DNA of 64,000 nucleotides from Actinomycetes bacterium (GCA_038145175.1 JAYQPE010000004.1:111206-175205), one strand, 5' to 3'; positions 6,542 to 23,877 are shown, counted from the stretch's first letter. Notes: generated by a model not told the origin, from the letters alone. Numbers and translations are program-made.

Positions 6542-6820
6542 ATGAAAGACAAAAATACTAATTCAAAAAGTTTTAAGGAATCCATTCAATCTATCTGGTC
6601 AGTAAATTCAGACGAAATTTCAAAAATTGTAGAAATTGAAGAAGAATGTGGTCCAACAAAAACCTGCAAAAATATGAAAGAAATAACTTTTGAAGGATTT
6701 GCAGAATCAGGTGGTAGTTTATCGGATGCATGGAAAGCAACTCTTGCACGAGAAGGAAAATTAAATGAAGGTAAAGGAAGCATTAAAGATATTATTCTTG
6801 GATCTAAAGAGAACCGTTAA
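6542..6820 (+). CDS. hypothetical protein, first gene of coxD-coxE operon
   Basis: GGAGG SD, 92 aa, 14 bp upstream of coxD on the same strand; ECGPTKTC motif. Confidence 0.7.
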   Translation: MKDKNTNSKSFKESIQSIWSVNSDEISKIVEIEEECGPTKTCKNMKEITFEGFAESGGSLSDAWKATLAREGKLNEGKGSIKDIILGSKENR

Positions 6821-6834
6821 ATTTTAAATTAAAC

Positions 6835-7698
6835 ATGGAAGAAATAAAATCAGTTGAATCTTTAACAAAACAACTAAAACAAATTGGCTATATTGCCGAC
6901 AGAGGGCTTTCAACTTCTATTTTAATTTCATTAAAAATGGGACGTCCCCTGCTTTTAGAAGGAGAAGTGGGAGTAGGAAAAACTGAACTAGCAAAAGCTC
7001 TTGCAAAATTATTTAATCGAGAATTAATCCGTTTACAGTGTTACGAAGGCATTGATACTAATCAAGCATTATACGAATGGGATTATGCTCGACAAATACT
7101 TGAAATTCGAGCCATGAATGAAACAGGAAATAAAAAAAATGAAGTAGACAAACTTTTCAGTGAGAAGTTTTTAATTGAAAGACCATTACTTTCTGCCATC
7201 AGAGCAGGGGATAAATCAGTATTACTTATTGATGAAATTGACCGAGCAGATGATGAATTTGAGGCATTTTTACTCGAATTACTATCAGATTTTCAAATAT
7301 CAATTCCTGAAATTGGAACTATTAAAGCAAAAACTAAACCCATAATTATTTTAACTTCAAATCGTACTCGTGAACTTCATGATGCTCTAAAAAGACGTTG
7401 CCTTTACAACTGGATTGGTTTTCCCAGTGTTGAGCAAGAATTAGAAATAATTAGGAGTCGCATTCCTGATGTAACAGAAAAATTAGCTTCTAAAGTTGTT
7501 GAGGCAGTTAATCGCCTTAGAGAAATGGAATTAGAAAAATCACCTGGTGTCGCAGAAGCTATAGATTGGGTTTCCTCATTGCAGGCAATTCAGGCAGATG
7601 ATTTAACCGCTGAAAGTGCCATGGATAGTTTAGGTGCAATTTTAAAAGACCGAAGTGATATAGAAACTGTTAAAGAAAATCTTCAAGAAATAGTTTAA
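6835..7698 (+). CDS. coxD: MoxR-family AAA+ ATPase, CoxD-like CODH maturation chaperone
   Basis: Walker A LLLEGEVGVGKT, RLQCYEG, Walker B LLIDEIDRAD, TSNRTRELHDALKRRC; paired with a vWA protein inside a cox island. Confidence 0.9.
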   Translation: MEEIKSVESLTKQLKQIGYIADRGLSTSILISLKMGRPLLLEGEVGVGKTELAKALAKLFNRELIRLQCYEGIDTNQALYEWDYARQILEIRAMNETGNKKNEVDKLFSEKFLIERPLLSAIRAGDKSVLLIDEIDRADDEFEAFLLELLSDFQISIPEIGTIKAKTKPIIILTSNRTRELHDALKRRCLYNWIGFPSVEQELEIIRSRIPDVTEKLASKVVEAVNRLREMELEKSPGVAEAIDWVSSLQAIQADDLTAESAMDSLGAILKDRSDIETVKENLQEIV

Positions 7699-7699
7699 A

Positions 7700-8833
7700 G
7701 TGTCTTTTGATTCAACATTTGAAGAACTATTTGTCGAATTTGGAGATTTATTACGCAAATCTGGCCAATCAATTGGTTCCGACGATATTTTAGTTTTTTG
7801 TGATGCCGTTTCTAAATTAAATCCTTCTGATCTTGTTGATATTTATTGGTCAGGTCGATCAACGTTAATTCATAAAAAAGATTCTATTCCAATTTATAAT
7901 CAAAAATTTAGGGAATTTTTTTTAAATGCTGAATCAATCTCTAATGATCCTAGAAAAAAGAAAATTCAAGCCACTTCCATAGCGACTGCTACTTTTGAAA
8001 TTCCAGAAGTTGAAGAAGGAACACCGGGTGAAGGTGAAGAAGAAGAAAAAAAGATGGGTTTTGTTTCTTCTACAACAGATATTTTTAGATCAAAAGAATT
8101 TAAAGATTGTTCTCCCGAAGAGCTTGCCAAAATGCGACAGATGATGAATGTTTTTAAATTATCTCCTCCTGAGAGAAGAACTAGAAGATATCAACTTAAA
8201 AAAAATGGAAATAAATTAAGTATGAGAAATATTGCTAAACAAGTTATGAGAAATCATGGAGAAATCGATGAACTAGTTTATGTAAGTAAAAAAAGAAAAC
8301 TTAGACCAATCGTTTTTATATTAGACATTTCTGGTTCAATGGCTGATTATTCTCGAAATCTTTTACAATTTGCCCATGCTGCACGCAGCGCCCATGAAAA
8401 AGTAGAAGTTTTTTGTTTTGGTACCAGACTAACTCGTATTACCAAAATTTTGGACCATAGATCACCAGATGAAGCAATGAAAATTGCTGGTAATGCAGTT
8501 TTAGATTGGGATGGTGGTACTCGAATTGGTGACTCTATCGAAACTTTTTTAAAAAAATGGGGCCGAAATGGAACCAGTAGAGGAGCTATAGTGGTTATTT
8601 GTTCTGATGGTCTTGATCGAGGTGATCCTCGAATTTTATTTGAAGCTATGGAAAGATTATCAAGATTAAGTTACAGAATTTTATGGATGAATCCTCATAA
8701 AGGTGATCAATTAAATTTTAAACCCAACACCATGGGTATGATTGTGGCAGATCCATTTATTGATCAAATTGTTTCTGGCCATAATTTGAATAGTTTAAAA
8801 GAATTTACTAAATCATTAGTTAATTTAAGATAA
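7700..8833 (+). CDS. coxE: vWA-domain protein, CoxE-like
   Basis: MIDAS DISGS, EVFCFGTRLTRIT, WDGGTRIG, SDGLDRG; directly follows coxD. Confidence 0.9.
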   Translation: MSFDSTFEELFVEFGDLLRKSGQSIGSDDILVFCDAVSKLNPSDLVDIYWSGRSTLIHKKDSIPIYNQKFREFFLNAESISNDPRKKKIQATSIATATFEIPEVEEGTPGEGEEEEKKMGFVSSTTDIFRSKEFKDCSPEELAKMRQMMNVFKLSPPERRTRRYQLKKNGNKLSMRNIAKQVMRNHGEIDELVYVSKKRKLRPIVFILDISGSMADYSRNLLQFAHAARSAHEKVEVFCFGTRLTRITKILDHRSPDEAMKIAGNAVLDWDGGTRIGDSIETFLKKWGRNGTSRGAIVVICSDGLDRGDPRILFEAMERLSRLSYRILWMNPHKGDQLNFKPNTMGMIVADPFIDQIVSGHNLNSLKEFTKSLVNLR

Positions 8834-8850
8834 AAAGATAGGAGAATACA

Positions 8851-9153
8851 ATGAAATTTAGTGTTTCAGTTTTTGCCGAAGGTGACAAAGAAATTTCTTT
8901 ATCAGAGATTGTGGAATTTGCAGATGCAGTAGCTCCACTTTCAGGAATTGCCTCTGGTGCAGGAAGTATGTCTTATGGAGCACAACTAGTTATTGAAGCC
9001 GAGAATTCAGATCTTGCAGTTGAAAAAGCGATTGTCGCATTTACAGAAGCAGCAAAATTAGCAAAATTACCTAGCTGGCCGGTTACAAAGGTTGAAACAA
9101 TCTCTGAAGTTGAAGATTTTGAAGACGAATACATAGGCGATGATCAGCCTTGA
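8851..9153 (+). CDS. hypothetical acidic small alpha/beta protein
   Basis: GGAGA SD, 100 aa, operonic with coxE and overlapping the next gene; no family recognised. Confidence 0.7.
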   Translation: MKFSVSVFAEGDKEISLSEIVEFADAVAPLSGIASGAGSMSYGAQLVIEAENSDLAVEKAIVAFTEAAKLAKLPSWPVTKVETISEVEDFEDEYIGDDQP

Positions 9154-9584
9154 TTCGATTAGGTTCTTTAGCAGGTTATGCATTTGAAGGTCCCAGAGTT
9201 TTAATGGGTTGGAGTCCACCAACGATTCCTGGTGTTTATGCAATTATGTCCAGATCAAATCCCAAAAATAAACCTCAACAATATTCTGTTATTTACGTAG
9301 GCCATGCAGAAGATCTTTCCCAAATTGGTTTTCCCTTAAAACATCCATATGCCCAGTCTTGGATCAAAAGATCTGGGGACAAATTTAATCTTTTTGTCTG
9401 CTATCTAGAAATTCTAGGTGGAACAGTTGCCCACCGCGAACAAATATCAAAAGAATTACAATCAATTTATAAACCAAGTTGCAACGATGAAGTTTACGAT
9501 AAAGCGTGGAAAGATGAATGGATCGGCGAATACAACTCAATAACGACAGATCCACTTACTACTAATCGTGATCCAAATCTTTAA
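9150..9584 (+). CDS. GIY-YIG-like domain protein
   Basis: PGVYAI ... IYVGHAEDL and a C-terminal ELQSIYKPSCN match the GIY...YIG and E..I..P..N pattern. Confidence 0.6.
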   Translation: MIRLGSLAGYAFEGPRVLMGWSPPTIPGVYAIMSRSNPKNKPQQYSVIYVGHAEDLSQIGFPLKHPYAQSWIKRSGDKFNLFVCYLEILGGTVAHREQISKELQSIYKPSCNDEVYDKAWKDEWIGEYNSITTDPLTTNRDPNL

Positions 9585-9941
9585 TTAATCAGCTTTTAGA
9601 CCAATTCCTTCGAATTGTCTCGAACGTCGAACTCCCATTGCTGGACGAGCAGGTTCTGGTTTACTGTGATCTGGTTTATATGTTGCGCCAACCACAATGC
9701 CTTCTGCCATTCCATAGAGCAAAGGTAATGCACCTGCCACAACTCCACCTGTTCTATTAATTCGTTTTAGAGCAGGTTCAATGACTTCTGCGTTTCCTTT
9801 AATCTTCCAAACTAAGTCGGCTGCTTCTTCTAAATTTGTAGCAACTTTTTTTAATTGGATTCCTACAATTAACAAATAAATTGCAAGTCCTGCGATTAAA
9901 GCAACTATGTCAATTATTGTTAAAATAATTAATGTTCTCAT
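9585..9941 (-). CDS. small single-pass membrane protein, cox-array member 5
   Basis: N-terminal TM plus amphipathic heptad helix and a C-terminal extension; ATGA overlap with member 4. Confidence 0.8.
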   Translation of the reverse strand: MRTLIILTIIDIVALIAGLAIYLLIVGIQLKKVATNLEEAADLVWKIKGNAEVIEPALKRINRTGGVVAGALPLLYGMAEGIVVGATYKPDHSKPEPARPAMGVRRSRQFEGIGLKAD

Positions 9942-10228
9942 GAGCGCACCTTATCCAATACTCTGCCTAAGAAAAGATGATGTTGAAGACCTTCTGCTAA
10001 AACTCCATCAACACCTTCAGATACATCTGTTAATAATTTTGCATTTGCAGTATTTGCTTCAGCAGTTGTCAAAGTTGCTTTGATTGCTTTAACCCGCTTA
10101 TCTATCCTGCGAACTAAAATAACCAAAATTGTCAGCAATGCTGCAACAGCTAGAACTACAACAAATCCTAAAACAATTGCTGCAGTCCAAAGTGTTACTA
10201 CTGTTTCTGAAAGAGTTCCTGAATCCAT
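9938..10228 (-). CDS. small single-pass membrane protein, cox-array member 4
   Basis: GGAGG SD; TM, then RRID...NTAN heptad helix. Confidence 0.8.
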   Translation of the reverse strand: MDSGTLSETVVTLWTAAIVLGFVVVLAVAALLTILVILVRRIDKRVKAIKATLTTAEANTANAKLLTDVSEGVDGVLAEGLQHHLFLGRVLDKVRS

Positions 10229-10230
10229 TT

Positions 10231-10488
10231 CTAACCTCCCAATCTGTTTCTGCCTCGTTTGAGCCCATCAATTATTGATGTTGCAAAGGCAATAGTTGTT
10301 TTTAAATCTTTTAAAGGTGCAGTGTTAGTTGCTGCATTTACTAAACCGTCGTTTATTTTCCCAGCTTGTCCGCCAATTCGATAAGCAAGTAAAAGAATCG
10401 GAACGACTAGCGCCACCACTACGAGCACCACTACCAAGCCAATAAAAAATCCTAAAGCCCAACCAGTATGTCCACCAAAAATACTCAT
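10231..10488 (-). CDS. small single-pass membrane protein, cox-array member 3
   Basis: AAGGAGA SD; TM, then YRIG...NTAPL heptad helix. Confidence 0.8.
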   Translation of the reverse strand: MSIFGGHTGWALGFFIGLVVVLVVVALVVPILLLAYRIGGQAGKINDGLVNAATNTAPLKDLKTTIAFATSIIDGLKRGRNRLGG

Positions 10489-10496
10489 ATGTCTCC

Positions 10497-10724
10497 TTAA
10501 ATTGTTTCTGCAAAATCTCGAACGGGTTTAAGACTTGAATTAACGGCAGGAACTGCTGCAGGAACTGGAGAAGTTTTAGCGGCAATAACTTGTACCCCGC
10601 CATCTAGTGCATCTAAAGTTTTTGCCACAGCTCGAAGATGACCTATGACTCGACTTAAACCTAAGGCAGCTGCGGCAATTATTAATGTCGCAAGTACCAA
10701 AGTCACAATTGCTACGGTTGGCAT
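10497..10724 (-). CDS. small single-pass membrane protein, cox-array member 2
   Basis: GGAGA SD; TM, then LRAV...KTSPV heptad helix. Confidence 0.8.
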   Translation of the reverse strand: MPTVAIVTLVLATLIIAAAALGLSRVIGHLRAVAKTLDALDGGVQVIAAKTSPVPAAVPAVNSSLKPVRDFAETI

Positions 10725-10733
10725 TTTGTTCTC

Positions 10734-10988
10734 CTATCCCAATAATTTGGCAACTGAGCCTGCGTATCTCACAGCTCCATTTGCTACATCTGAAATAACA
10801 GCACCTGTTTCATTTAGCAATTCAGGAGTGTTGTTAATTTCTCCAATTAAGGCAACTCCGCCTTCTAGTGCGTCATCTGCTGCTGATCGAATTCGCTCAA
10901 GTGAACCTAAAACTAGATTCAGTAAGGCAATTAGCACAGGAACAATCACAACCAACAAAACTAAATTTCCTATAGCCCATAAAGACAT
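10734..10988 (-). CDS. small single-pass membrane protein, cox-array member 1
   Basis: GGAGA SD immediately after the coxG stop; TM, then ERIR...NNTPEL heptad helix. Confidence 0.8.
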   Translation of the reverse strand: MSLWAIGNLVLLVVIVPVLIALLNLVLGSLERIRSAADDALEGGVALIGEINNTPELLNETGAVISDVANGAVRYAGSVAKLLG

Positions 10989-11000
10989 GTTTTATTTCTC

Positions 11001-11588
11001 CTATCTTCTTTGTAATGGTTTGTAGGGAAAAAAGAATCTGCCAAACACACGCACTGCTGCTCTTTTGAAAGCATTGAAACCAATTGCTAATCCGCTTGCT
11101 GCTTTTGGTCCAGCTACAGTATTTGGATCAAGTCCTAAAGAAATAGCACGTATTCGAGCTTGAGCGCTACTTGCTGTTTGATTAACTAAGACTGCGGTTA
11201 CGTCGTTAATTAAACCTCTACCATATTGAGCTGCCGCACCTGAAACTTGCAAATCCAGCGCAATAGTTGCTTTAGTGCCTCCACCTAATGAAGCTAAATT
11301 AATAGTTAATAGTGCATCAGCATTTCCGCGACCTTTTTTATCTGCACCTTTAGCATCTATAACTGTTACCTTTTTGGCTACATCGCGATTAACAATTTTG
11401 GCTACACCTGCAAATTCCAATTTCACTGGTCCTGCAGAAATGATAACGTCACCTTCATAGGATCCATCGGGCATTTGATTAGTTAAATTTGCACCTGGAA
11501 TACAAGGTGCTACTTGAGATAAATCACCAAAAAAATTCCATACTGAATCGATTGGTTGATCTAGTTCAATTACTTGCGAAATTATCAT
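11001..11588 (-). CDS. coxG: CoxG (SRPBCC/START-fold) CODH accessory protein
   Basis: VAPCIPGA, KGADKKGRGNA, VSGAAAQYGRGLINDV signature; downstream of coxL. Confidence 0.9.
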   Translation of the reverse strand: MIISQVIELDQPIDSVWNFFGDLSQVAPCIPGANLTNQMPDGSYEGDVIISAGPVKLEFAGVAKIVNRDVAKKVTVIDAKGADKKGRGNADALLTINLASLGGGTKATIALDLQVSGAAAQYGRGLINDVTAVLVNQTASSAQARIRAISLGLDPNTVAGPKAASGLAIGFNAFKRAAVRVFGRFFFPYKPLQRR

Positions 11589-11589
11589 C

Positions 11590-12543
11590 TTATCTCCTTT
11601 GCGCTAAGAATGAAGTTGGATTTTTTTCAAACGATGTCCTACAGCCAGGTGCGCAAAAATAAAAAGTATTTCCTTCATATTCAAATGGTCTATTTGATTT
11701 TTGCGCCAAAACGGTCATGCCACATACTGGATCAATTACTTCAGCTACTTCAGAAGTTTTGATTTGAGAATTCGTAACCTTTGCAAATTCTCCTAAAGCA
11801 CGTAATTTAACTAACTCTGCAAGAATTGACACAGCCATTTCTCTATGAGTGGTGTGACCCAAATCTAAGCCCACTGGAATTTTGACTTTTTCTATTTTTT
11901 CAGGCGCAATTTTTTTACTTGCCAGATAATCAAGGACAACTTGTCCACGCTTTTTAGAAGCTACCACACCTATAAATACTGGTGAATTATTTAGAGCAGT
12001 TTCTACTGCTTCTTCGTCACCATGACCTTGTGTTGCAACTACAACTATTGAAGATTCTGAAACCATGTTGCTCGTAAAATCTTCTACATCAACTAAAGTT
12101 ACATTCCAATCAAGATTTTGAATTAAAGTTGATAATGTTACTGCCATTGGTGAGCGTCCAACTATTAAAACTTGAGGCACTTTCAACATTGGTTCAATAT
12201 AAATTTGTAATGCCCCATCAGATTGACAAGAAATTGGTATAGCTAACACTCCATCTGGAATATGTAGTCCTGCAAATTCAGCTTCTTGACCCAACCAAAT
12301 AAGTTTTGCTTTACCTTCTGCTAAAACCTTTTTTGCTTCTTTAATTAAGACAGGTTCTGCGCAAGCACCACCAATCCAACCAAATATTTCACCTGATTCT
12401 GTAACAATTGCTTTTGAACCGCTTTGTCCTGAAGATGGTCCTTGTCGCCACACAACTGTTGCCATGACAAATGAGTGACCTTGATTTGTCAGTTCAACAG
12501 CACGTTGTATTACGCCAATTCCTTCAACAGCGTGATTATTCAT
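11590..12543 (-). CDS. XdhC/CoxF-family maturation protein with C-terminal YHS domain
   Basis: WIGGACAE, ISCQSDG, ATQGHGDE, PVGLDLG; C-terminal DPVCGMTV...FYFCAPGCRTSF (YHS/TRASH). Confidence 0.88.
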   Translation of the reverse strand: MNNHAVEGIGVIQRAVELTNQGHSFVMATVVWRQGPSSGQSGSKAIVTESGEIFGWIGGACAEPVLIKEAKKVLAEGKAKLIWLGQEAEFAGLHIPDGVLAIPISCQSDGALQIYIEPMLKVPQVLIVGRSPMAVTLSTLIQNLDWNVTLVDVEDFTSNMVSESSIVVVATQGHGDEEAVETALNNSPVFIGVVASKKRGQVVLDYLASKKIAPEKIEKVKIPVGLDLGHTTHREMAVSILAELVKLRALGEFAKVTNSQIKTSEVAEVIDPVCGMTVLAQKSNRPFEYEGNTFYFCAPGCRTSFEKNPTSFLAQRR

Positions 12544-14924
12544 TAATCACCAACTCGAACTGGAGGCATTCCTGATATATCACGGCCTTCATGAATAGCG
12601 GCATAAACACGATCTGGAAGTAATGGCATATCAATATTTCTTACCCCAAAACCTTTAACTGCATCCATCACTGCGTTAACAAATGCAGCTGGACCTCCAA
12701 CCGTGGCACATTCACCAATTCCTTTAGCCCCAATTGGGTGATGTGGACATGGTGTTACAACTTCATGTAATTCAAATCCTGGAGTTTCCCAAGCAGTTGG
12801 TAGTAAATAATCCATGTAATTTGAACCAACACAATTTCCTTCTTCATCAAAAGTAATAAATTGCATACTTGACATTGCATAAGCTTCAGTTAATCCACCC
12901 ATGATTTGTCCTTCAACAATCATTGGATTAATGCGCACTCCACAATCATCAACCGCAACTACTTTTAATACATCCCACACACCAGTTTCTGGATCAACTT
13001 CAACTGTGGCAATGTAACAAGCAAATGGCCAAGTTAGATTTGGTGGATCATAATAAGAAACATTTTCTAGTCCAGGTTCCATTCCATCTGGCATATTTGT
13101 GTAAGCAGCTACAGCACATTCTTGAATGGTTACACCTTTATCTTTAGCACCTCGGACAAAGAATCGACCTAGTTCCCATTCAATATCTTCCTCAGATACT
13201 TCTAATAAGTGTGCAGCTAATTTTCTTGCTTTTGCTCTAATTTTTCTTGCCACCATGGCAACAGCAGCACCGGCGACAGGTGTAGATCTTGACGCATAAG
13301 TTCCCATCCCAAATGGGGCTGTATCTGTGTCACCTTCTTCTACCACAATGTCATCGGCAGGAATGCCTAATTCATGTGCAACTATTTGAGCCCAAGTAGT
13401 TTCATGTCCTTGCCCTTGAGATTTAGCACCAGTACGAAGTAATGCTTTACCAGTAGCATGTACGCGAAGTTCAGCAGAGTCAAACATTTTTATTCCCAAA
13501 ATGTCATATTCTCTTGAATTTCCCGCGCCAAGTGGTTCTGTCATTGTGGATATACCAATTCCTAATAATTTTCCACGCTTGGCTGCTTCTGCTTTTTGTT
13601 TTAAGAAATCTTTATAGCCAATAGCTTCTAATCCAATATCTAAGCATTTTCCATATTGACCAGAATCCGTTAAAAATCCAAATGGGGTTCTATATGGAAA
13701 CATATCGTCTTTCACAAAATTGATACGACGAAATTCAGCTTGATCCATACCAATATCATCAGCTGCTGCTTGCATCATTCTTTCTTGGAAAAACATTGCT
13801 TCAGTGACGCGGAAAGAACATCTATAAGCAACCCCACCTGGTGCTTTATTTGTATAAACTCCTGTAGCTGTTAGATGAGCAACAGGAATGTCGTATGCAG
13901 CAAATGCTGAATGCATCAAACCTATTTTAAATTTACTTGGTTGAGCATCAGAAAAAAATGCACCTTGATCTGAAGTTGTGTGCATGCGAATACCTAAAAT
14001 TTTTCCATCTTTTCGCATTGCAACTTGACCTTTCAAATACACATCTCTTGCAAAATGTGTTGAAATCAAATTTCCTGATTTATCTTCAATCCACTTCACA
14101 GGTTTCTCAGTGAGAATTGAGGCAAGAATTGAAATTACATAACCTGGATAAACTGGCACCTTGTTGCCAAATCCTCCACCTAAATCTGGTGAAATAATTC
14201 GAATTTGATGCTCAGGAAGTTCTGCAACTAAAGCAACTGCTGCACGAATAATGTGTGGTGCTTGAGTTGTCATGTAAACAGTTAATTTGCTGGTTGCACG
14301 ATCAAAATCTGCAATTGAACCACAAGTTTCCATTGGTGATGGATGTGATCTTGGATAGTGAAGTTCTAAATTTGAAATTTTGTCTGCAGCAGCAAAAGCT
14401 TTATCTGTACCAGCTTTATCGCCAATTTCCCAATCGTAAACATGATTATTTACTTGACCACTTTTATCATCACGAATAACTGGTGCACTTGGCTCCATTG
14501 CTTGGAAAGGATTTACTAATGCAGGTAAAGTTTCATAATCAACTTTAATTTTCGCAACAGCATCTTTAGCAATATATGGATCATCTGCCACTACCGCAGC
14601 AACTTCTTGACCTTGAAAACGAACTTTATCCGTAGCTAAGACTGCTTGTGTGTCATAAGACAACGTTGGCATCCAAGCTAAATTTCTAGCAGCCATCATT
14701 TCACCGGTTAAAACTAAACGAACTCCTGGAACTTCCCAGGCTGCACTAACATCAATTGATTTAATACGCGCATGCGCTACAGGACTTCTTAATATTTCCA
14801 TGTGCAACATGCCAGGAAGAACTATGTCATCAACATAATTTCCTTTACCTCTAAGAAATCTGTTGTCTTCTACTCTTTTGCGGCTTGCACCCATTCCACC
14901 TATTTTTATTTCATCTATTGTCAT
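12543..14924 (-). CDS. coxL: aerobic carbon monoxide dehydrogenase large subunit, form I
   Basis: Form I active-site loop VAYRCSFR with the Cu-ligating Cys; QGQGHETT, GTYASRS, AKGIGE motifs; M-S-L gene order. Confidence 0.96.
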   Translation of the reverse strand: MTIDEIKIGGMGASRKRVEDNRFLRGKGNYVDDIVLPGMLHMEILRSPVAHARIKSIDVSAAWEVPGVRLVLTGEMMAARNLAWMPTLSYDTQAVLATDKVRFQGQEVAAVVADDPYIAKDAVAKIKVDYETLPALVNPFQAMEPSAPVIRDDKSGQVNNHVYDWEIGDKAGTDKAFAAADKISNLELHYPRSHPSPMETCGSIADFDRATSKLTVYMTTQAPHIIRAAVALVAELPEHQIRIISPDLGGGFGNKVPVYPGYVISILASILTEKPVKWIEDKSGNLISTHFARDVYLKGQVAMRKDGKILGIRMHTTSDQGAFFSDAQPSKFKIGLMHSAFAAYDIPVAHLTATGVYTNKAPGGVAYRCSFRVTEAMFFQERMMQAAADDIGMDQAEFRRINFVKDDMFPYRTPFGFLTDSGQYGKCLDIGLEAIGYKDFLKQKAEAAKRGKLLGIGISTMTEPLGAGNSREYDILGIKMFDSAELRVHATGKALLRTGAKSQGQGHETTWAQIVAHELGIPADDIVVEEGDTDTAPFGMGTYASRSTPVAGAAVAMVARKIRAKARKLAAHLLEVSEEDIEWELGRFFVRGAKDKGVTIQECAVAAYTNMPDGMEPGLENVSYYDPPNLTWPFACYIATVEVDPETGVWDVLKVVAVDDCGVRINPMIVEGQIMGGLTEAYAMSSMQFITFDEEGNCVGSNYMDYLLPTAWETPGFELHEVVTPCPHHPIGAKGIGECATVGGPAAFVNAVMDAVKGFGVRNIDMPLLPDRVYAAIHEGRDISGMPPVRVGD

Positions 14925-14933
14925 GTTTGCTCC

Positions 14934-15461
14934 TTAGTTTCCTGATGCTCGCATTTTTTCAGCAGCCCATAGAACTGATTTAACAATGTTTTGATAACCA
15001 GTACATCTGCATAAATTTCCTGATAATGCCCAACGAACTTCATCTTCTGTTGGATTTGGATTTTCTTCCAATAAAGCTTTTGCTGCCATCATCATTCCTG
15101 GTGTGCAAAAACCACAATGCAAACCGTGTTCTTGTTTAAATCCTTCTTGTATTGGATGCAACTCACTTGGAGTAGCCAAACCTTCAACTGTTTCAACTTT
15201 ATGACCATCTGCTTGCACCGCTAGCATTGTGCAACTTTTAATTGGTCGACCATCAAACAATACTGTGCATGCACCACAATTTGTTGTGTCACAACCTGTA
15301 TGGGTTCCAGTCATTTTGAAACCTTGACGCAACAAATGTGCTAGTAGTAAGCGTGGTTCAACATCTGCAGTTCTATCAACACCATTTACTTTTATTGTGA
15401 CGCGGCGAACTGGTACGTCACCTTCTGGTTTTGGTGCAACTTCATCGTAGAGACTTGTCAT
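14934..15461 (-). CDS. coxS: CODH small (2x[2Fe-2S]) subunit
   Basis: [11 protein letters not shown]...C and CGFCTPG...NLCRCTGY. Confidence 0.95.
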
Positions 15462-15462
15462 T

Positions 15463-16335: not shown

Positions 16336-16381
16336 TTACAATTCCTTTCTTTTCCTTATTTCTTTTTGCAAAACTAAACTT

Positions 16382-16633
16382 TTACTTTTTTTTCTTCTTG
16401 CCACGTTCATCAGCAACTGCAGTTGGTTCATCTGCACTATCTGGATCTGGTCTTTTTTCTTGATGTGGTGGCCATGGTCCTTTAACAGGTTGTCCTGCAA
16501 CTTTTAGATATTCAGTAATTTGTGGCCACGCCCAAATAGTTGGACTATCACCTTTTTTTGGAGAGTTTTCAATTAGCTCAAAAAATCTTGGATTACCTTT
16601 TTCTTTACCGGTTGATTCAAAAGCCATTGTCAA
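16382..16633 (-). CDS. hypothetical protein heading the coxMSL operon
   Basis: AAGGAG SD, 83 aa, 46 bp upstream of coxM on the same strand; Trp/Pro-rich core. Confidence 0.7.
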   Translation of the reverse strand: MTMAFESTGKEKGNPRFFELIENSPKKGDSPTIWAWPQITEYLKVAGQPVKGPWPPHQEKRPDPDSADEPTAVADERGKKKKK

Positions 16634-16750
16634 CTCCTTTTGATTCTTAATTGAATTCCGTGTTAGGTCATCAATCTAGTTGAAACTTACTCAAACCATA
16701 CATCCGGTTACGCCTACCAGACAATAACTTTTTTCAACAATTTCTATTGA

Positions 16751-17341
16751 CTAAAGAGGGCGCCCTCTCAAGTCTGTTGCCAGGTCCACATCGTCTAGCC
16801 CAGCTTTTTGCTTAAAAACTTCTTCAGCCACATCTGACCTTGAACTCAAAAATGCCTTTGCCCCTGTATCACCTGAAACTGTGCTTATGACTTCATCCCA
16901 GTATTGGGAGGCTATCTTAACCGGGTGGCCTTGTATCCCTTCAAATTTTGCAACTACCAAATCAGCTGGATTGTCAAGTACTTTTTTAATAATTTCAACA
17001 GTGAGCCAAGGTAAATCTACAAGTGTGATCAAAACATGAGTTATTTGATTTTCATTTTTGGCCTCAAGTTTTTTATTTTGTTTTTGTAAAGCTTTAAGGC
17101 CACTTTTTATGGAAGTACTAACCCCTTCAGCCCAATCTGTATTTATAACTATTTCGCTATTATTTACCTCACCAATCCAGGCTCCCAACACCACAAAAAC
17201 AAAATCACAACCTGACTTATTTAATAAATTAACCGCATGATCTACCAGTCTTTCTCCATTAAATAAAACACTTGCTTTAGGTTGACCAATCCGAGTTCCT
17301 GCTCCAGCGGCAAGAACTAAACCGGCAGTTACGTTAGTCAT
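16751..17341 (-). CDS. mocA: molybdenum cofactor cytidylyltransferase (MocA-like nucleotidyltransferase)
   Basis: LAAGAGTRIGQPK, GVSTSIKSG, LVDLP, GHPV, GDTGAK; CODH uses MCD. Confidence 0.82.
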   Translation of the reverse strand: MTNVTAGLVLAAGAGTRIGQPKASVLFNGERLVDHAVNLLNKSGCDFVFVVLGAWIGEVNNSEIVINTDWAEGVSTSIKSGLKALQKQNKKLEAKNENQITHVLITLVDLPWLTVEIIKKVLDNPADLVVAKFEGIQGHPVKIASQYWDEVISTVSGDTGAKAFLSSRSDVAEEVFKQKAGLDDVDLATDLRGRPL

Positions 17342-17358
17342 TTGGATACAATCTCTTA

Positions 17359-18498
17359 ATGAGAGAAATTATTGAAAGTCTTCGAACTTGGTTTAATTCT
17401 GACCTTGATTTCACAATTGCTACAGTAACGCGAACTTGGAGTTCTTCTCCACGTCCCATCGGTGCTGCAATGGCTGTTTCTAAAAATGAAGAAATTGTGG
17501 GAAGTGTTTCAGGTGGCTGTGTTGAAGGTGCCTTATTTGAAGCATCTCTTGAAGTTTTAAAAGATGGTAAGCCAAAAGTATTGATGTATGGCGTAAGCGA
17601 TGATGATGCAATAGAAGTTGGTTTAACCTGTGGTGGAACTATTGAACTTTTTGTTCAACTTGTTAATAAAAAAACTTTTCCAAATTTTAATGAAGTAGCA
17701 GATACAATTCTCAAAGATTTACCTATCGCCATTGCAACTATAACAAGTGGCAGTGAAAATATTGGTTGTCGAATAATTTTATTTCAAAATTCTTTTGAAG
17801 GCAGCCTAAATAATGCAGGTCTGGAAGAATCTGTTTTAGAAGATGCTCGTGGACTATTGAATCATGGTAATACTAGAACTTTAAAATTTGGAGTCAATGG
17901 TGAAAGAAGAATAGATAATGTAAATATATTTGTAGAATCTTTTGCACGAGCTCCAAGAATGATAGTTTTTGGTGCAATAGATTTTGCAACAGCTGTAGCA
18001 AATATTGGAAAGTTTTTAGGTTATTACGTAATAGTTTGTGATGCCCGACCAATATTTGCCACTAAACGCAGATTTCCAAATGCTGATGAAATTATAGTTT
18101 CTTGGCCACATAAATATCTTTCAAGTATTGAAGTTGACGAAAGAACTGTACTTTGTGTTTTAACCCATGATCCTAAATTTGATATACCACTTTTAGAAAT
18201 AGCTTTAAAAACCAAAGCAGGATATATCGGGGCTATGGGAAGTAGAAGAACTCATGAAGATCGTTTAAAAAAATTACAAGAAATTGGAATTTCTAAAAAT
18301 GAACTTTCTAGACTTAGATCACCAATTGGTTTAGATCTTGGGGCAAGAACTCCGGAAGAAACGGCAGTGTCTATAGCTGCTGAAATTATTTCAAATATTT
18401 ATGGTGGAACAAATAATTCTTTATCTACAAATTCAAATTTAAAAATTCATAAAGATTCTTTAGCAAGTGAGAATGAATTACCACCTAAGTTAAATTAA
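17359..18498 (+). CDS. XdhC/CoxI-family protein (canonical)
   Basis: SSPRPIGA, GSVSGGCVE, GLTCGGTIELFV, LTHDPKFD, GAMGSRRT, SPIGLDLGARTPEETAVSIAAE. Confidence 0.92.
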   Translation: MREIIESLRTWFNSDLDFTIATVTRTWSSSPRPIGAAMAVSKNEEIVGSVSGGCVEGALFEASLEVLKDGKPKVLMYGVSDDDAIEVGLTCGGTIELFVQLVNKKTFPNFNEVADTILKDLPIAIATITSGSENIGCRIILFQNSFEGSLNNAGLEESVLEDARGLLNHGNTRTLKFGVNGERRIDNVNIFVESFARAPRMIVFGAIDFATAVANIGKFLGYYVIVCDARPIFATKRRFPNADEIIVSWPHKYLSSIEVDERTVLCVLTHDPKFDIPLLEIALKTKAGYIGAMGSRRTHEDRLKKLQEIGISKNELSRLRSPIGLDLGARTPEETAVSIAAEIISNIYGGTNNSLSTNSNLKIHKDSLASENELPPKLN

Positions 18499-18501
18499 AA
18501 C

Positions 18502-18990
18502 TTAGTTTTCTCTTTTGTGATCTCCACCATTAATTTGATCTAAAGTATGTTCTAAAATTGGCATGATTACTTCCAAACCATCTTTCACTCCACCTATTGA
18601 TCCAGGTAAATTAATTATCAACGTTTTATTTGCAATACCTGCAATACCTCTTGAAATAATTGCAGTTGGTATCCCTTTTTTCACACCATAATTTCTTATA
18701 GCTTCAGCAATTCCAGGTGATTCACGTTGAATAACTTTTTTTGTCATTTCAGGAGTCAAATCCATTGGTGTATGACCTGTTCCACCAGTAGTAATAACAA
18801 TATCTTTTAAATTATTTACAGCTTCTTGTAATTTTTGAGTAACTATTTCCCCATCTGAAATAACTAGAGGTCCTTCTACTTCTAGTCCAGCATTTGTTAG
18901 CGTTTCAAATATTAAAGGTCCAGAAGTATCTTCCCAAACACCTTGAGCAGCTCTTGTGGAAACTGTTATTACCAAAGCTTTATATTTCAT
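18502..18990 (-). CDS. moaB: molybdopterin adenylyltransferase MoaB/Mog
   Basis: EDTSGP, TTGGTGHTPMDLTPE, SRGIAG, NLPGS motifs. Start set 2 bp after the moaA stop. Confidence 0.88.
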   Translation of the reverse strand: MKYKALVITVSTRAAQGVWEDTSGPLIFETLTNAGLEVEGPLVISDGEIVTQKLQEAVNNLKDIVITTGGTGHTPMDLTPEMTKKVIQRESPGIAEAIRNYGVKKGIPTAIISRGIAGIANKTLIINLPGSIGGVKDGLEVIMPILEHTLDQINGGDHKREN

Positions 18991-18991
18991 T

Positions 18992-19993
18992 TCATCCCCC
19001 AATAGCAGACATTGGGCGTTGAGGTTTGATAAAAGTTGGCAAATTAATTTGATGGCCGGCTAATTTATCTTTTACCGTTTGTTGTAAAACACTGGTAATT
19101 TTTGTTACTTTTTCTTCATTATTTAATTGATTACTTCTCAAAATATCTCTTAAATTAGACTCAGTTCTAGAAAAAAGGCAAGAACGAATTTGGCCATCTG
19201 AAGTTAATCTAAGTCGATCACACGATCCACAAAATGGCTTACTAATACTTGCAATAATTCCCACATATTGCGGTCCGCCATTTATTAAAAATTTTTCTGC
19301 CGGAGCTGATCCTCGAGTTGGGACAGCACTTAAATTATAAATATTTTTTAAGGAATCAAATATTTCATCTGCGGTAATAAAATTATTTCGGCTCCAAGCA
19401 TTACCTGCATCAAGAGGCATTTGCTCAATAAATCTAAGTTCTAATTCAGATTCAAGTGCCCATTTTACTAACGCTGGTGCTTCGTCATCATTTATTCCTC
19501 GTAATAAAACTGAATTTATTTTTATAGGTTTTAATCCAGATTTTTTAGCTGCTTCAATACCTTTAAATACATCTTGTATGCGATTTCGTTTCGTAATTTC
19601 CATAAAACGATCTGCTTGTAAAGTGTCTAAACTTACGTTAATTCTTTTTAATCCCGCATCTACAAGTTCCTCAGCTTTTTTAGCTAAGGCAAGTCCGTTA
19701 GTAGTCATAGATATTTCCGGCGGATTTTTAATTTCATTAATTTGTGCCACAATTTCAACAATGTCTGGACGGATAAGTGGTTCTCCACCAGTAAGTCGTA
19801 TTTCGGTGATTCCACAATCAACAGCAATTTTTATTACTTCTACTAATTCAGGTGTTGTTAAATGATCTTTTGATGGAATCCAAAGATTAAAATCTTCAGG
19901 CATACAATATGAGCATCTCAAATTACATTTATCGGTAAGTGAAATTCTTAAGTCTTTATGCACTCGACCAAAAGAATCGATTAGTTGTGTCAT
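18992..19993 (-). CDS. moaA: GTP 3',8-cyclase MoaA
   Basis: Radical SAM CNLRCSYC, RLTGGEP, FCGSCDRLR and C-terminal MSAIGG; ATGA overlap with moaE. Confidence 0.96.
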   Translation of the reverse strand: MTQLIDSFGRVHKDLRISLTDKCNLRCSYCMPEDFNLWIPSKDHLTTPELVEVIKIAVDCGITEIRLTGGEPLIRPDIVEIVAQINEIKNPPEISMTTNGLALAKKAEELVDAGLKRINVSLDTLQADRFMEITKRNRIQDVFKGIEAAKKSGLKPIKINSVLLRGINDDEAPALVKWALESELELRFIEQMPLDAGNAWSRNNFITADEIFDSLKNIYNLSAVPTRGSAPAEKFLINGGPQYVGIIASISKPFCGSCDRLRLTSDGQIRSCLFSRTESNLRDILRSNQLNNEEKVTKITSVLQQTVKDKLAGHQINLPTFIKPQRPMSAIGG

Positions 19994-20409
19994 GCTGAAT
20001 TCACCCACTCATCACTTCCGTCTTCAAAATATTGATGCTTCCATATGGGTAATTTCTCTTTAACACGACTAACCGCTACAGAGCAGGCATTAAAAGCAAC
20101 ATCACGATGTTTCGAAGCAACTATAACCGCAAAAGCTATATCTTGAATTTGTAAGATTCCAAATCTATGCACCATTACTAAAGACTCAAGTTTAAATTCT
20201 TGAATTAATTCATTTGCAATTGATTGCAAAACTTTTTCTGCGCTAGGATGGATTTCATAATCCAATGATTTAACATTTTTATTATTATCATGATTTCTGA
20301 CATTTCCAGAAAAAACAACAATTGCGCCACTTGCAGAATTTACAGCAGATTTTCTAAGTTCATCTAAATCAATTTGTTCATCAGTTACTGCAGTATAGGT
20401 ATAGGTCAT
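19990..20409 (-). CDS. moaE: molybdopterin synthase catalytic subunit MoaE
   Basis: GAIVVFSGNVRNH, HRFG, HRDVAF, KLPIWKHQYFEDGSDEWV. Confidence 0.93.
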   Translation of the reverse strand: MTYTYTAVTDEQIDLDELRKSAVNSASGAIVVFSGNVRNHDNNKNVKSLDYEIHPSAEKVLQSIANELIQEFKLESLVMVHRFGILQIQDIAFAVIVASKHRDVAFNACSVAVSRVKEKLPIWKHQYFEDGSDEWVNSA

Positions 20410-20440
20410 TGTTTTGTTTCCCAAACTCCATTTTTATGCT

Positions 20441-21607
20441 CTAACAAGAGAGCCATCTAACTAGTGTTCCTTTTTCATTTAACCCAGGAGGCAATATTGC
20501 AAAGCCAGAAGAATTTGCTAAACCTCTTAACATCGCCGAACCTAAAAATTTTGCGGGCATAAATTCCCCATTAATCACATTTCCTGGTATTTGACGCGAA
20601 AATCCTGTTGGAGTAGAAATTTCTACTCCCATTTTAATAAAAATCTCTTTTTCTTTTTTTCTTCCTAATAATGAGTAAATTAAAGGAATTCCAAATGAGG
20701 TCAAAGAAGAAATAGCAGATAAAGGATTTCCAGGAAGTGAAATTACAATAATTGTTTTCCCGCTTTTATTTAATACGGTATTTATCAAAATATGATATCC
20801 GGGACGAACTTTTACTCTATCTATTAAAAATTTACCATTAAATTTTTCAATCATAGGTTTTACAAAATCTCTTGGTCCATCAGCTGTTCCACCTGTAGTG
20901 ATGATAATTTCACTAGAATCTATTTCTTTATCAAAGAGATTAATTAATGTGTTTAAATCATCTTTCACAAAATAAGTTTTATTTATTTCTACCCCGTAAT
21001 TTAAAAGAAAAGAGGGAAGTTGTATTCCTAGTGCATCTCGAATTTGACCATCTTTGGGTATACCTTGCTCTAATAATTCATCTCCTAGAATAAAAATAGA
21101 AACTTTAGGTTTAACAACAACTTTAACTTCATCGACTCCACTCGCTGCAAATAATCCAAGATGAAAGGGATTTATCTTTTCACCTGCTCCAAGCAGTAAA
21201 TCTCCTGTATTACATTCTGCTCCAGCTTCCCGAATATTTTCACCCATTTTTGAATCACCAGTTATTAATCCATCTTTTTCAACAGTTTTTTCCCAAGGAA
21301 TTACTGCTTCACCACCAAACGGTAAAACTCCGCCTGTAGCTATGCGCATTGTTTCTCCAGATTTAAGTTGTGTTGATTCTTTTGTTCCGGTAATAACTTC
21401 ACCAATAATTTTCCAAGGACCAGATCCTGAAACAACCCAACCATCCATTGCAGATGTCCTATACGCAGGAACAACTGTTAGTGCTAAAACATTTTCAAAT
21501 AAAATTCTGTCAACTGCTTGATTTATTGATATTTTTTCAAATTGTAAACTCTTAAATGTACTTTCACAAATTTCACGAGCTTCTTGCCAAGAACGTTCAC
21601 TCTTCAT
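20441..21607 (-). CDS. moeA: molybdopterin molybdotransferase MoeA
   Basis: SAMDGW, RIATGGVLP, GDELL, TTGGTADG, LPGNPLSA, SAMLRGLA. Confidence 0.92.
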   Translation of the reverse strand: MKSERSWQEAREICESTFKSLQFEKISINQAVDRILFENVLALTVVPAYRTSAMDGWVVSGSGPWKIIGEVITGTKESTQLKSGETMRIATGGVLPFGGEAVIPWEKTVEKDGLITGDSKMGENIREAGAECNTGDLLLGAGEKINPFHLGLFAASGVDEVKVVVKPKVSIFILGDELLEQGIPKDGQIRDALGIQLPSFLLNYGVEINKTYFVKDDLNTLINLFDKEIDSSEIIITTGGTADGPRDFVKPMIEKFNGKFLIDRVKVRPGYHILINTVLNKSGKTIIVISLPGNPLSAISSLTSFGIPLIYSLLGRKKEKEIFIKMGVEISTPTGFSRQIPGNVINGEFMPAKFLGSAMLRGLANSSGFAILPPGLNEKGTLVRWLSC

Positions 21608-21778
21608 TACTTCATTATGTCACTTGTTCAATTGTGCTACTATAAAAACCTGTGGGAATGACTGGGACAGACCGGTTCTTACAATCCAAAATCAAAAAAT
21701 CTTTGAGGTGTTTTGTCATGGAAAAAAATATTTCTAAATTTTATTTCATAACTAATATTAATAAAATATTTAAATAGT

Positions 21779-22522
21779 ATGGATTTATTTTTTATTGCGC
21801 TTTTAATTTGTTTTCTTATAATTTCAATTCTTTACTCTTCTGTGGGGCACGCAGGAGCATCTGGTTACCTAGCCACAATGGCTATTTTTGGATTATCACC
21901 TTTAATAATGAGACCTACGGCTCTAGCGTTAAATATATTAGTATCGAGCATTGTCACATTTAGATTTTCGCAAGCAAATTTAATTAAATGGAAAACTCTA
22001 ATTCCACTAATTATTACTTCAATTCCCATGGCTTTTATAGGAGGAAGGATTATACTTGCAGAAAATATTTATAAACCAATTCTGGGAATAGTCTTATTAT
22101 TTGCTTCATTAAGATTATTTCAAACTGCTAAAAAAAATTCTGTAGCAGTTGATTTTTTTAAAAATATTTCAACTCCATTTTTACTTTTTATTGGAGCAAT
22201 TTTAGGTTTACTCTCAGGAATAACAGGAACTGGCGGTGGAATATTTCTCACACCATTACTTGTAATTTTTGGGATTGCTGGTGCTAGAACTGCAGGTGGA
22301 CTTTCTGCTGCATTTATTTTAGTTAATTCGATTTCTGGGCTAGTTGGAAATTATTCGTCTGTCCAAAACTTGCCTGAAAATCTTGTTTACTCTTTAATTA
22401 TTGTTGCGATTGGCGGTTTTATTGGCTCTGGTTTAGGTGTAAAAAAATTAGGTCATCCGGCGCTAAAAATATTATTAGGTTTAGTACTTGTTATTGCAGG
22501 TATAAAATTAATTTTGTTGTGA
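21779..22522 (+). CDS. sulfite exporter TauE/SafE (TSUP) family permease
   Basis: VGHAGASGYLA, GLLSGITGTGGGIFLTP, 8 TM segments. Confidence 0.88.
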   Translation: MDLFFIALLICFLIISILYSSVGHAGASGYLATMAIFGLSPLIMRPTALALNILVSSIVTFRFSQANLIKWKTLIPLIITSIPMAFIGGRIILAENIYKPILGIVLLFASLRLFQTAKKNSVAVDFFKNISTPFLLFIGAILGLLSGITGTGGGIFLTPLLVIFGIAGARTAGGLSAAFILVNSISGLVGNYSSVQNLPENLVYSLIIVAIGGFIGSGLGVKKLGHPALKILLGLVLVIAGIKLILL

Positions 22523-22665
22523 ATAATTAATTTGATTCTTTTCTAATTCTGTTATTTTATTGTGCAGTTTAAGCATCATGTAGAACATGATGCTATCTAA
22601 AGTAATCATGATTGCCATCACGGTCCACATTAAAGACATGTTATGCAAAAAAGAATTATGCATAA

Positions 22666-23589
22666 TTACTCCTGTTTCAAAATTGATCTATGAACATTTA
22701 TTGCTTCTGCAAGTATAGATATCGCAATTTCACTCGGGTTTGCTGCACCAATACTTAAACCAGCCGGGCCATGTACCCGAGATAAATCAGTTATTTCTTT
22801 AAATGTTATTAACCAATTTGCTCTATTTTCTTGCATGGCTCGAGATCCTAAAGCACCGATATAGCCAGCGTTACTTTCTAGTGCCGAAGCAAGATTTGAA
22901 CTTGACTGTTCAACATCATGTCCCATTATTACCACTGAATCGATTGAAGTAAGATTCGCCACAAGTCCCTTAACATTTTCTGGACGTGGATCTGTTTTTA
23001 CTTGCCAACCTAATAATTTGGCATTTAATTGAAGCGCATTTGCAATTGGCCCTGTTCCAGCAATTATCAATTTTGGTGTTGGCCGAAGTATTGTAACTAC
23101 TGAATTATCAAATTCAACTACTTTACTATCCCCTGTCAAAAATAATTCTTGTATATCTGCAGCAGCTGTTCCAATATTTTCTTTGGAAAAAATTTCTATT
23201 TTTTCAATAATTAAATCTTTGTGATAAACAACAATTGCAACACTTTTTCTATTGAATAATATTTTCCATAAATCTTCAGGAAATTGATGAGCTGGTGCAA
23301 TAATAAAACGGGAGACAGAATTTAATGGCAAATTTGAAATACTTGCTTCTAATGGACCAACTATTAAATTAGCTAATCTACCTTTCGTGAGCTCTCTTTC
23401 AGCAATGTCTTGAAGTTGACCATCAAATACTCCACCTGCAACTGAGCCAACTCTTCCTCCACCTTGAGTTATCGCAATTGAGTCACTTGCAATTACATTG
23501 TTTAGAAATTCAGATGAAACTAACCAGGCAATGTCAGTTCTTGTATTTGCTCGAAGGCAAGCCTCTACACTTAGCGCTAAATCATACAT
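22666..23589 (-). CDS. divergent XdhC-family protein
   Basis: GRVGSVAGG, IIAGTGPIA, GYIGALGSR, GPAGLSIGAANPSEIAISILAE; lacks both N-domain Cys. Confidence 0.85.
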   Translation of the reverse strand: MYDLALSVEACLRANTRTDIAWLVSSEFLNNVIASDSIAITQGGGRVGSVAGGVFDGQLQDIAERELTKGRLANLIVGPLEASISNLPLNSVSRFIIAPAHQFPEDLWKILFNRKSVAIVVYHKDLIIEKIEIFSKENIGTAAADIQELFLTGDSKVVEFDNSVVTILRPTPKLIIAGTGPIANALQLNAKLLGWQVKTDPRPENVKGLVANLTSIDSVVIMGHDVEQSSSNLASALESNAGYIGALGSRAMQENRANWLITFKEITDLSRVHGPAGLSIGAANPSEIAISILAEAINVHRSILKQE

Positions 23590-23640
23590 TTCATTAGTAT
23601 ATAAACTAAGCAAAATTTGCAAAATAACGTTGGAGCGAAC

Positions 23641-23877
23641 GTGGTAACAGTGAACTTTTATGCTTCGGCAAAAGGTTTAGTAGGTGTTCCAGCTTTACAA
23701 GTGGAATCTGATTCCTTTGAAAAAATATTAGATAAATTGAAGAAAGATTATCCAAATTTAAATAAAATATTACCTAGTTGTACTTTTCTTGTTAATGGCA
23801 ATTTAGTTAAAAAATTTGATTTAATGGTAGATAGTGGTTCTAATATTGACATTTTGCCAGCATTTGCAGGAGGTTAA
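23641..23877 (+). CDS. moaD: MoaD/ThiS sulfur carrier
   Basis: Ubiquitin-like, DILPAFAGG C-terminus; GGAG SD before GTG at 23641. Confidence 0.9.
   Translation: MVTVNFYASAKGLVGVPALQVESDSFEKILDKLKKDYPNLNKILPSCTFLVNGNLVKKFDLMVDSGSNIDILPAFAGG

Follow-up and report, generated by a model that had tools for sequence, protein, structure and literature searches.

Among the closest described counterparts of the system reported here are two form I aerobic carbon monoxide dehydrogenases (CODHs), the CoxMSL enzyme known from Afipia (Oligotropha) carboxidovorans OM5 and the CutMSL enzyme of Hydrogenophaga pseudoflava (structures 1N5W and 1FFU), which are encoded on the megaplasmid or chromosome of large-genome carboxydotrophs with the Calvin-Benson-Bassham cycle. 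The locus considered here is a CODH gene island in a 64,000-nucleotide stretch of actinobacterial DNA (hereafter the window; JAYQPE010000004.1, 111206–175205), which lies within a 182-kb contig of a 1.33-Mb metagenome-assembled genome (MAG) in which no true RuBisCO was found. The island encodes the same subunits in the same M-S-L order, with an identical AYRCSFR loop in the large subunit CoxL and full-length alignment (E ~1e-280), and it shares coxD, coxE, an XdhC-type coxF and coxG with both systems. It differs from them in the absence of coxB, coxC, coxH, coxI and coxK homologues, in the presence of five small membrane open reading frames (ORFs), orf83, orf92, orf100, orf144 and an XdhC-fused YHS domain, and in the physical linkage of its molybdenum cofactor (Moco) genes to the cox genes.

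The best match among solved structures, the CODH of Mycobacterium smegmatis (8UEM; 967 bits), comes from an actinobacterial host and also has CoxG. This high-affinity enzyme serves persistence on trace CO, not growth (Cordero et al., 2019, PMC6794299). Its loop reads AYACSFR, compared with AYRCSFR here, and in the trees it falls into another form I subclade, clearly apart from that of the island. In CODH loci of Nanopelagicales and Acidimicrobiia MAGs (“Ca. Planktophila sp.”, S36-B12, Ilumatobacteraceae), CoxL is 82–89% identical to that of the island, and a block of about 16 genes is shared (orf83-coxMSL-xdhC/YHS-coxG-small transmembrane genes-orf144-orf100-coxE-coxD-orf92-xdhC). The hosts of those loci have a GC content of 44–67%, compared with 35.5% here; in the present genome the block additionally includes moaA, moaE, mog, moaD and tauE, and it stands behind a tRNA-Leu gene with an att-like remnant. 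Form I CODH has been reported from aquatic Actinomycetota MAGs, namely Nanopelagicales S36-B12 and Ilumatobacteraceae (Lappan et al., 2023, PMC10305171), and Actinomycetota dominate the potential CO oxidisers in one marine metagenome group, identified with the Baltic Sea (mSphere 2026, PMC13203968). In the latter study, 114 of 234 marine species clusters mix cox+ and cox- genomes. Marine MedAcidi genomes were reported to contain form II only (PMC4337565), and CO oxidation goes unmentioned in a cultivation-based survey of Nanopelagicales (PMC12817590). In the literature searched, CO oxidation seems under-noticed in this order.

The position of the island recalls tRNA-associated integrative islands, with which it shares insertion at the 3′-end of a tRNA gene, a far-end repeat of the tRNA 3′-half, alternative cargo, an empty site and within-species variation. 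It departs from them in having no integrase or mobility gene, a host-like composition and a distal repeat that has decayed to ~66% identity. Flexible and replacement genomic islands of streamlined plankton have been described for Planktophila (PMC12817590). In all likelihood, the locus is a 17.9-kb flexible genomic island (window ~6019–23891) that occupies a hypervariable slot immediately 3′ of tRNA-Leu(UAA), and represents an old, lineage-resident CODH cassette. The enzyme type is well known; the informative part is the gain and loss of the cassette among close relatives.

A variable slot behind tRNA-Leu(UAA)

The genome that contains the window (G000) comprises 40 contigs and is estimated to be 94% complete; the 18 congeneric species representatives with which it was compared are likewise MAGs. 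Other G numbers denote relatives, L numbers related loci, and C numbers contigs of G000. Throughout the family and order, over a GC range of 43–73%, the core genes keep the order orf434-orf155-orf163-ppx-(udg)-tRNA-Leu(UAA), and the content of the slot behind the tRNA gene varies. In the commonest state, found in eight genomes of the genus, trx is located 1–70 bp or about 1 kb from tRNA-Leu, and the succession udg, tRNA-Leu, trx is probably ancestral for the genus. In the subclade of G000, fadD lies between tRNA-Leu and trx, and the fadD orthologues of G005, G007, G009 and G011 are 85–89% identical to that of the window. The empty site is represented by G009, in which 135 bp separate tRNA-Leu from fadD. 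The same slot contains a 6-kb deacetylase and Liv-type ABC transporter cassette in G007, a gene encoding a 371-amino-acid lipoprotein in G005, and an SDR fragment with a large surface protein in G011. In G000 it is occupied by the CODH island, which starts 14 nt beyond the 3′-end of the tRNA gene. A reading made earlier from the sequence alone (the sequence-only reading) had pointed to sister genomes, compared at the fadD and tRNA-Leu flanks, as informative on this island. All 18 congeneric representatives were found to be devoid of it and of any form I CoxL.

At the far end of the island, positions 6019–6064 match the 3′ part of tRNA-Leu at 29 of 44 positions (~66%). This copy is followed by TTTTGCAG and the upstream region of fadD, and homology to the empty site of G009 resumes right after it. 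Its alignment score of 13 lies 6.5 standard deviations above the window background (2.5 ± 1.6), which at the predicted position corresponds to an empirical p of ~1e-4; outside real tRNA genes, one other of ~18,260 sampled windows reached that score. This other stretch (window 53110–53155) is coding-looking sequence and probably a chance match. Better-preserved repeats are found in congeners. The cargo of G005 (L104:12243–13561) lies between the tRNA gene and a 42-nt stretch that repeats its 3′ part perfectly, again followed by TTTTGCAG and fadD, and a near-perfect repeat (score 44/45) is located just upstream of fadD in G011 (L103:1415–1460). These repeats point to an att site that is active, or was recently active, in the genus; no integrase was seen in the G005 and G011 stretches that were read. 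The identification of 6019–6064 as a remnant is based on its predicted position together with the repeats of the congeners.

Every ORF of at least 80 amino acids between window positions 5900 and 23900 was assigned, and none resembles an integrase or recombinase, in agreement with the sequence-only reading. From these comparisons, we conclude that the 3′-half of tRNA-Leu has probably been used repeatedly as a recombination site, and that the event in G000 is an old one. The cassette probably entered, or was mobilised, by site-specific recombination at the tRNA 3′-half, after which the integrase would have been lost and the distal repeat would have decayed. A few genomes would then have kept the cassette, and most relatives would have lost it or exchanged it for other cargo. 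The empty site, the fresh att repeats around small cargo, the old island with its decayed repeat, and presence or absence within a species form a natural series, which illustrates the turnover of metabolic cassettes at a tRNA hotspot of streamlined plankton without visible mobility genes.

Of the 93 species genomes of the family, which belong to eight genera, form I CoxL above the cut-off is found in 23, that is, in one of 19 genomes of this genus, one of 14 of genus g6 and about 21 of 40 of genus g5, with none in the other five genera. An exact look-up of the window CoxL returned no identical record, and only one cluster with 97% CoxL identity (P0001) was present among 5.8 billion proteins searched. 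This cluster is represented by at least seven contigs of 36–37% GC, from an NCBI MAG and several metagenomes, on which the same island stands directly after udg and tRNA-Leu and shares 81–82% nucleotide identity with that of G000. The udg-tRNA flank of these contigs is 99.1% identical to that of the representative genome G008, whose slot extends over only 1.3 kb before trx and contains no island; the island is therefore polymorphic within the G008 species. The far flank of the P0001 island is a cyclopropane-fatty-acid-synthase-like gene rather than fadD, and no tRNA remnant was found at that end. In a more distant genome of 1.1 Mb and 45% GC (G061), a CODH cluster (L085) adjoins udg-ppx, with an MFS transporter gene between them and no detectable tRNA-Leu. 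None of the 30 other sampled relatives of G061 has this type of CoxL, and two large-genome ones have the Mycobacterium type.

The CO dehydrogenase and its clade

The coxM, coxS and coxL genes of the island are adjacent and all located on the minus strand, and the AYRCSFR motif corresponds to CoxL residues 366–372 (window 13809–13829). CoxL scores 1106.5 bits against TIGR02416, the form I equivalog model (cut-off 991.15), and the next family reaches 587 bits against a cut-off of 790. The best matches of known structure are 8UEM (E 8e-290), 1FFU and 1N5W; all three alignments are full-length, with GAKGIGE and TTQAPH conserved. In trees of 102 sequences (LG+G4) and 43 sequences (LG+C20), the form I clade, which includes 8UEM and 1FFU, is split from form II-like copies with support of 99 and 100/100, respectively. 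The form II-like copies (L013 and L114) are without the motif and fall outside the form I clade. CoxL is the sole large subunit of the xanthine-oxidase family in G000, and the accessory maturation genes coxD, coxE, coxF-like (XdhC) and coxG are all found in the island (Pfam). By motif, gene order, curated hidden Markov model cut-off and phylogeny, the predicted enzyme is a form I Mo-Cu CODH; the sequence-only reading had made the same assignment from the motif and gene order, and had looked to the CoxL phylogeny to confirm it.

From what is known of the family, CO would be oxidised at a [CuSMoO2]-molybdopterin cytosine dinucleotide (MCD) centre bound through Cys369 in the AYRCSFR loop. Both [2Fe-2S] clusters of CoxS would relay the electrons to flavin adenine dinucleotide (FAD) in CoxM, from which they would reach quinone in the membrane with the help of CoxG. 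The probable task of the XdhC-YHS fusion is to hold the cofactor or to sulfurate it, and it may also bring in copper. Conversion of the cofactor to its cytosine dinucleotide form would fall to the MocA-like enzyme, and most of the molybdopterin pathway would be covered by moaA, moaD, moaE, mog and moeA.

Within form I, the window CoxL is part of a compact clade with a long stem (1.1–1.85 substitutions per site), and each of the 83 members examined has an unaltered AYRCSFR. Mycobacterium-type copies, with AYACSFR or AYSCSFR, form a separate form I clade and score ~1350 against TIGR02416, compared with ~1100 for the present clade. The two CoxL types lie side by side in at least nine loci, a hint that their roles may differ. 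Loci with both types (L027, L034, L076, L077, L081, L083, L087, L090 and L092) come from soil-type MAGs of Nocardioides, Micromonosporaceae and Streptosporangiaceae.

The genes that accompany this clade are conserved. The order orf92-coxD-coxE-orf100-orf144 is identical in about 70 of 80 related loci, and that of orf83, four small membrane proteins, orf144, orf100, orf92 and XdhC-YHS recurs in most of the 80, which span Nanopelagicales, Acidimicrobiia, Nocardioides, Micromonosporaceae and others. Four of the five small membrane ORFs (84, 85, 96 and 118 amino acids) were queried and are kept in most of these loci at 50–82% identity; five genes were called at this spot in further related loci. 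No Pfam family was found for the small membrane ORFs, orf83, orf92, orf100 or orf144. As judged from their conservation, these ORFs and XdhC-YHS are real genes that form part of the predicted CODH module of the clade.

Alternative explanations

A recent horizontal transfer into this genome from a remote donor of higher GC, for example Acidimicrobiia, would accord with the 39% GC of the cox core, compared with ~34–35% nearby, with the many Acidimicrobiia MAGs among the closest CoxL sequences by raw identity (85–87%), and with island Moco genes that duplicate native ones at only 39–59% protein identity. However, only codon positions 1 and 2 show the excess of GC, and third-position GC is equal to that of the flanks (0.12–0.28 in island genes, 0.15–0.21 in the flanks). 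Under the site-heterogeneous LG+C20 model, the window CoxL forms one clade with all the sequences tied to its own order (95/97), both those labelled Nanopelagicales and those from same-family and same-order genomes, apart from Acidimicrobiia. The congener P0001 carries the same island, at 81–82% identity, beside a flank that is 79.9% identical, and fast-evolving island genes are about as diverged from those of family relatives (coxE 55%, xdhC 51–53% identity) as are the flank genes ppx (51%) and udg (49%). With the att remnant also heavily decayed, a donor of this kind is highly improbable. The host-like third-position GC, the equal divergence of island and flank, and the own-order CoxL clade argue instead for an old component of the flexible gene pool. 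The island status that the sequence-only reading considered compatible with the tRNA border is supported by the empty site, the other cargo and the repeat remnant. The GC and codon-usage profile, proposed there as a check, gives no support to a recent foreign import. In the LG+G4 tree, the window CoxL was sister to that of L085 in G061, which suggested a transfer between streamlined lineages; this grouping vanished with more taxa and the C20 model, and is regarded as a compositional or long-branch artefact.

The equal divergence of island and flank between G000 and the G008-like lineage would also suit an ancestral CODH-Moco cluster that was inherited vertically at this site and deleted repeatedly by streamlining, with no mobility involved. 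So would the fully ameliorated composition, the cluster beside udg-ppx in the distant 1.1-Mb genome G061, and the frequency of CODH in the sister genus g5. Such a history shares the age of the island with the explanation preferred here and differs only on mechanism. It is at odds with the deep-branching G004 and G017 and six other genomes, in which trx directly follows tRNA-Leu, and with the restriction of fadD, the flank of the G000 island, to one subclade. The two carriers also have unlike genes at the far end of the island, and presence or absence differs between genomes whose flanks are 99% identical. Direct repeats of the tRNA 3′-half around cargo are, moreover, the footprint of integration and not of random deletion. 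Purely vertical descent is thus unlikely. For an old cassette of the flexible gene pool, the patchy distribution could reflect repeated excision, transfer among congeners, or both.

As to function, the long stem of the CoxL clade, its lower TIGR02416 score, the loci in which both types are adjacent, and accessory genes of its own (orf83, the small membrane proteins, orf100, orf144 and orf92) could be taken to indicate a form I-like molybdo-hydroxylase that acts on another substrate, in some actinobacteria beside a Mycobacterium-type CODH. Yet the complete copper-binding loop is invariant throughout the clade, the score exceeds the curated equivalog cut-off, and coxD, coxE, coxF-like and coxG, which are specific to the building or wiring of a Mo-Cu site, are all present. 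The clade is also sister to CutL of H. pseudoflava, a solved CODH, in a join that is possibly a long-branch effect. That the enzyme is not a CODH in function is hard to credit on this evidence. A more tentative proposal, which we consider doubtful at present, is that the clade constitutes a functionally distinct kind of Mo-Cu CODH, in view of its invariant loop, its very long stem and the conserved partners peculiar to it (orf83 as an 83-amino-acid leader protein, the five small membrane proteins, orf92, orf100, orf144 and XdhC-YHS). It could include a module devoted to docking at the membrane and a copper chaperone of its own. It would be the main CO oxidiser of planktonic and sponge-associated Actinomycetota, and in soil actinobacteria would be kept beside the Mycobacterium-type enzyme for different roles.

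Several points weigh against the interpretation of the locus as an old CODH island brought in by recombination at the tRNA. The distal repeat is weak (29/44), and it stands out as significant only because the empty site predicts where it should lie: a position-blind local alignment (+2/-3, with shuffles of the 640-bp gap) was not significant, since 362 of 2000 shuffles reached the score. The integration mechanism is deduced from the repeats, with no integrase present. The 18 congeners are MAGs, in which islands are often missed in binning, yet several of their contigs span the slot itself. The absence of RuBisCO, of moeB, and of moaD and tauE from the native Moco locus could reflect gaps in the assembly (40 contigs, 94% complete). 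The CoxL subclade of the window has a long stem in both trees, and its CO-oxidising function is a predicted one.

Host genome, gene layout and cofactor genes

Two WhiB-like ORFs in G000 fit an actinobacterium, and for the CoxL sequences of same-family and same-order genomes there are almost identical entries at NCBI under the names Ca. Nanopelagicales, Nanopelagicaceae or Planktophila. Together with the genome size of 1.33 Mb and the GC content of 35.5%, these observations agree with the sequence-only description of the host as a streamlined, AT-rich actinobacterium. Cultured Nanopelagicales reportedly have 40–51% GC (PMC12817590), so that G000 represents a lower-GC lineage. The sole gene of the RuBisCO family in G000 encodes a form IV RuBisCO-like protein (C16:3082–4245), which scores 128–129 bits against cut-offs of 438–497 and whose best matches, all below cut-off, are MtnW-type enolases; true RuBisCO was not found in the 94%-complete assembly. 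This absence points to CO as a supplementary source of energy rather than a basis for autotrophic growth. Most likely, CO would supplement respiration (carboxydovory) and not support autotrophy, and the proposal that the organism is a carboxydovore is plausible given its gene content. An 18-kb, ~27-gene investment, including a second copy of most Moco genes, in some genomes of 1.1–1.3 Mb that are among the most reduced of free-living actinobacteria argues that CO is a worthwhile energy supplement in the habitat.

The gene set named in the sequence-only reading (coxMSL with AYRCSFR, coxG, coxDE, three XdhC paralogues, a mocA-like gene, moaABDE and moeA) is present in full, and the borders it gave, a non-coding gap on the left and tRNA-Leu on the right, are the same (Table 1). 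Annotation was based on ORF listing, Pfam, NCBIfam, ARAGORN for tRNA genes, and Rfam. No Moco riboswitch or other RNA element was found in the island with Rfam, and a scan for promoters and terminators yielded nothing exceeding shuffled expectation. The non-coding stretch at 6065–6541 shows no conservation with the island of the congener at the BLASTN level.

Table 1. Features of the CODH island and its flanks, in window coordinates.
Feature	Position	Strand	Basis or remark
fadD (long-chain acyl-CoA ligase)	4137–5900	-	Pfam; left flank, outside island
Non-coding gap	5901–6541		641 bp; no ORF
Decayed tRNA-Leu 3′ copy	6019–6064	-	attR-like remnant; distal boundary
AT-rich non-coding stretch	6065–6541		477 bp; inside island, upstream of orf92-coxD-coxE; no ORF, no Rfam match
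Maturation operon orf92-coxD-coxE-orf100-orf144	6542–9584	+	Pfam, NCBIfam
orf92	6542–6820	+	
coxD (MoxR-type AAA+ ATPase)	6835–7698	+	Pfam (AAA_5)
coxE	7700–8833	+	Pfam (VWA_CoxE)
orf100	8851–9153	+	
orf144	9150–9584	+	
Small single-pass membrane ORF, 118 amino acids	9585–9941	-	Downstream of coxG
Small single-pass membrane ORF, 96 amino acids	9938–10228	-	Downstream of coxG
Small single-pass membrane ORF, 85 amino acids	10231–10488	-	Downstream of coxG
Small single-pass membrane ORF, 75 amino acids	10497–10724	-	Downstream of coxG
Small single-pass membrane ORF, 84 amino acids	10734–10988	-	Downstream of coxG
Structural operon orf83-coxM-coxS-coxL-XdhC/YHS-coxG	11001–16633	-	
coxG	11001–11588	-	Pfam (COXG)
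XdhC+YHS fusion, CoxF-like	11590–12543	-	Pfam (XdhC_CoxI+XdhC_C+YHS)
coxL (Mo-Cu/MCD subunit)	12543–14924	-	Pfam, TIGR02416
coxS (2x[2Fe-2S])	14934–15461	-	Pfam
coxM (FAD)	15463–16335	-	Pfam
orf83	16382–16633	-	
mocA-like cytidylyltransferase	16751–17341		Pfam
XdhC (full)	17359–18498		
mog/moaB	18502–19002		
moaA	18992–20008		TIGR02666, 375 bits (cut-off 284)
moaE	19990–20424		
moeA	20441–21607		
TauE-family permease	21779–22522		
Third XdhC (C-terminal domain only)	22666–23622		
moaD	23617–23877		Product ends in GG
tRNA-Leu(UAA)	23892–23966	-	ARAGORN; Rfam, 64.5 bits; integration site, attL side
udg + ppx/gppA	23985–25615	-	Pfam; right core flank, outside island

The island had also been described as self-contained in its Moco biosynthesis, which holds in part: MoaA, MoaD, MoaE, Mog, MoeA and a MocA-like protein are encoded in it (the last with 89 bits against TIGR03310, below the cut-off of 186), but moaC and moeB are not, and moaC is supplied by a second, native Moco locus. 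This locus (C25:478–4229) comprises a mobA-like gene with DUF6457, moaC, mog, fdhD, moaE and moaA. The abutting C2:2871–6173 contains moeA and a formate-dehydrogenase-like gene of PF00384 with an open frame of ~990 amino acids. The native locus is syntenic with that of G007, at 83–88% identity. The native module and a second PF00384 gene occur in the same seven of the 19 genomes of the genus, exactly those with moaA; because of this restriction and co-occurrence, the native module is itself considered accessory. It would serve the formate-dehydrogenase-like enzyme and, for the island, would provide the missing MoaC step. In the island of the congener, moaC is located between moeA and moaE (L140:4059–4535), and in G000 the 446-bp moaC is cleanly absent at this junction (window 20429–20436). 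Its loss from the G000 island was likely permitted by redundancy with the native moaC, and its retention in the congener makes the difference look like redundancy being trimmed.

A single 1.33-Mb genome therefore contains two parallel Moco sets for two enzymes. A TauE/SafE-family permease gene recurs in association with molybdopterin synthase genes: it is the neighbour of moaD in the island and again in the native Moco genes of G007 (L100:1535–2487), and the two permeases share 73% protein and 71% nucleotide identity.

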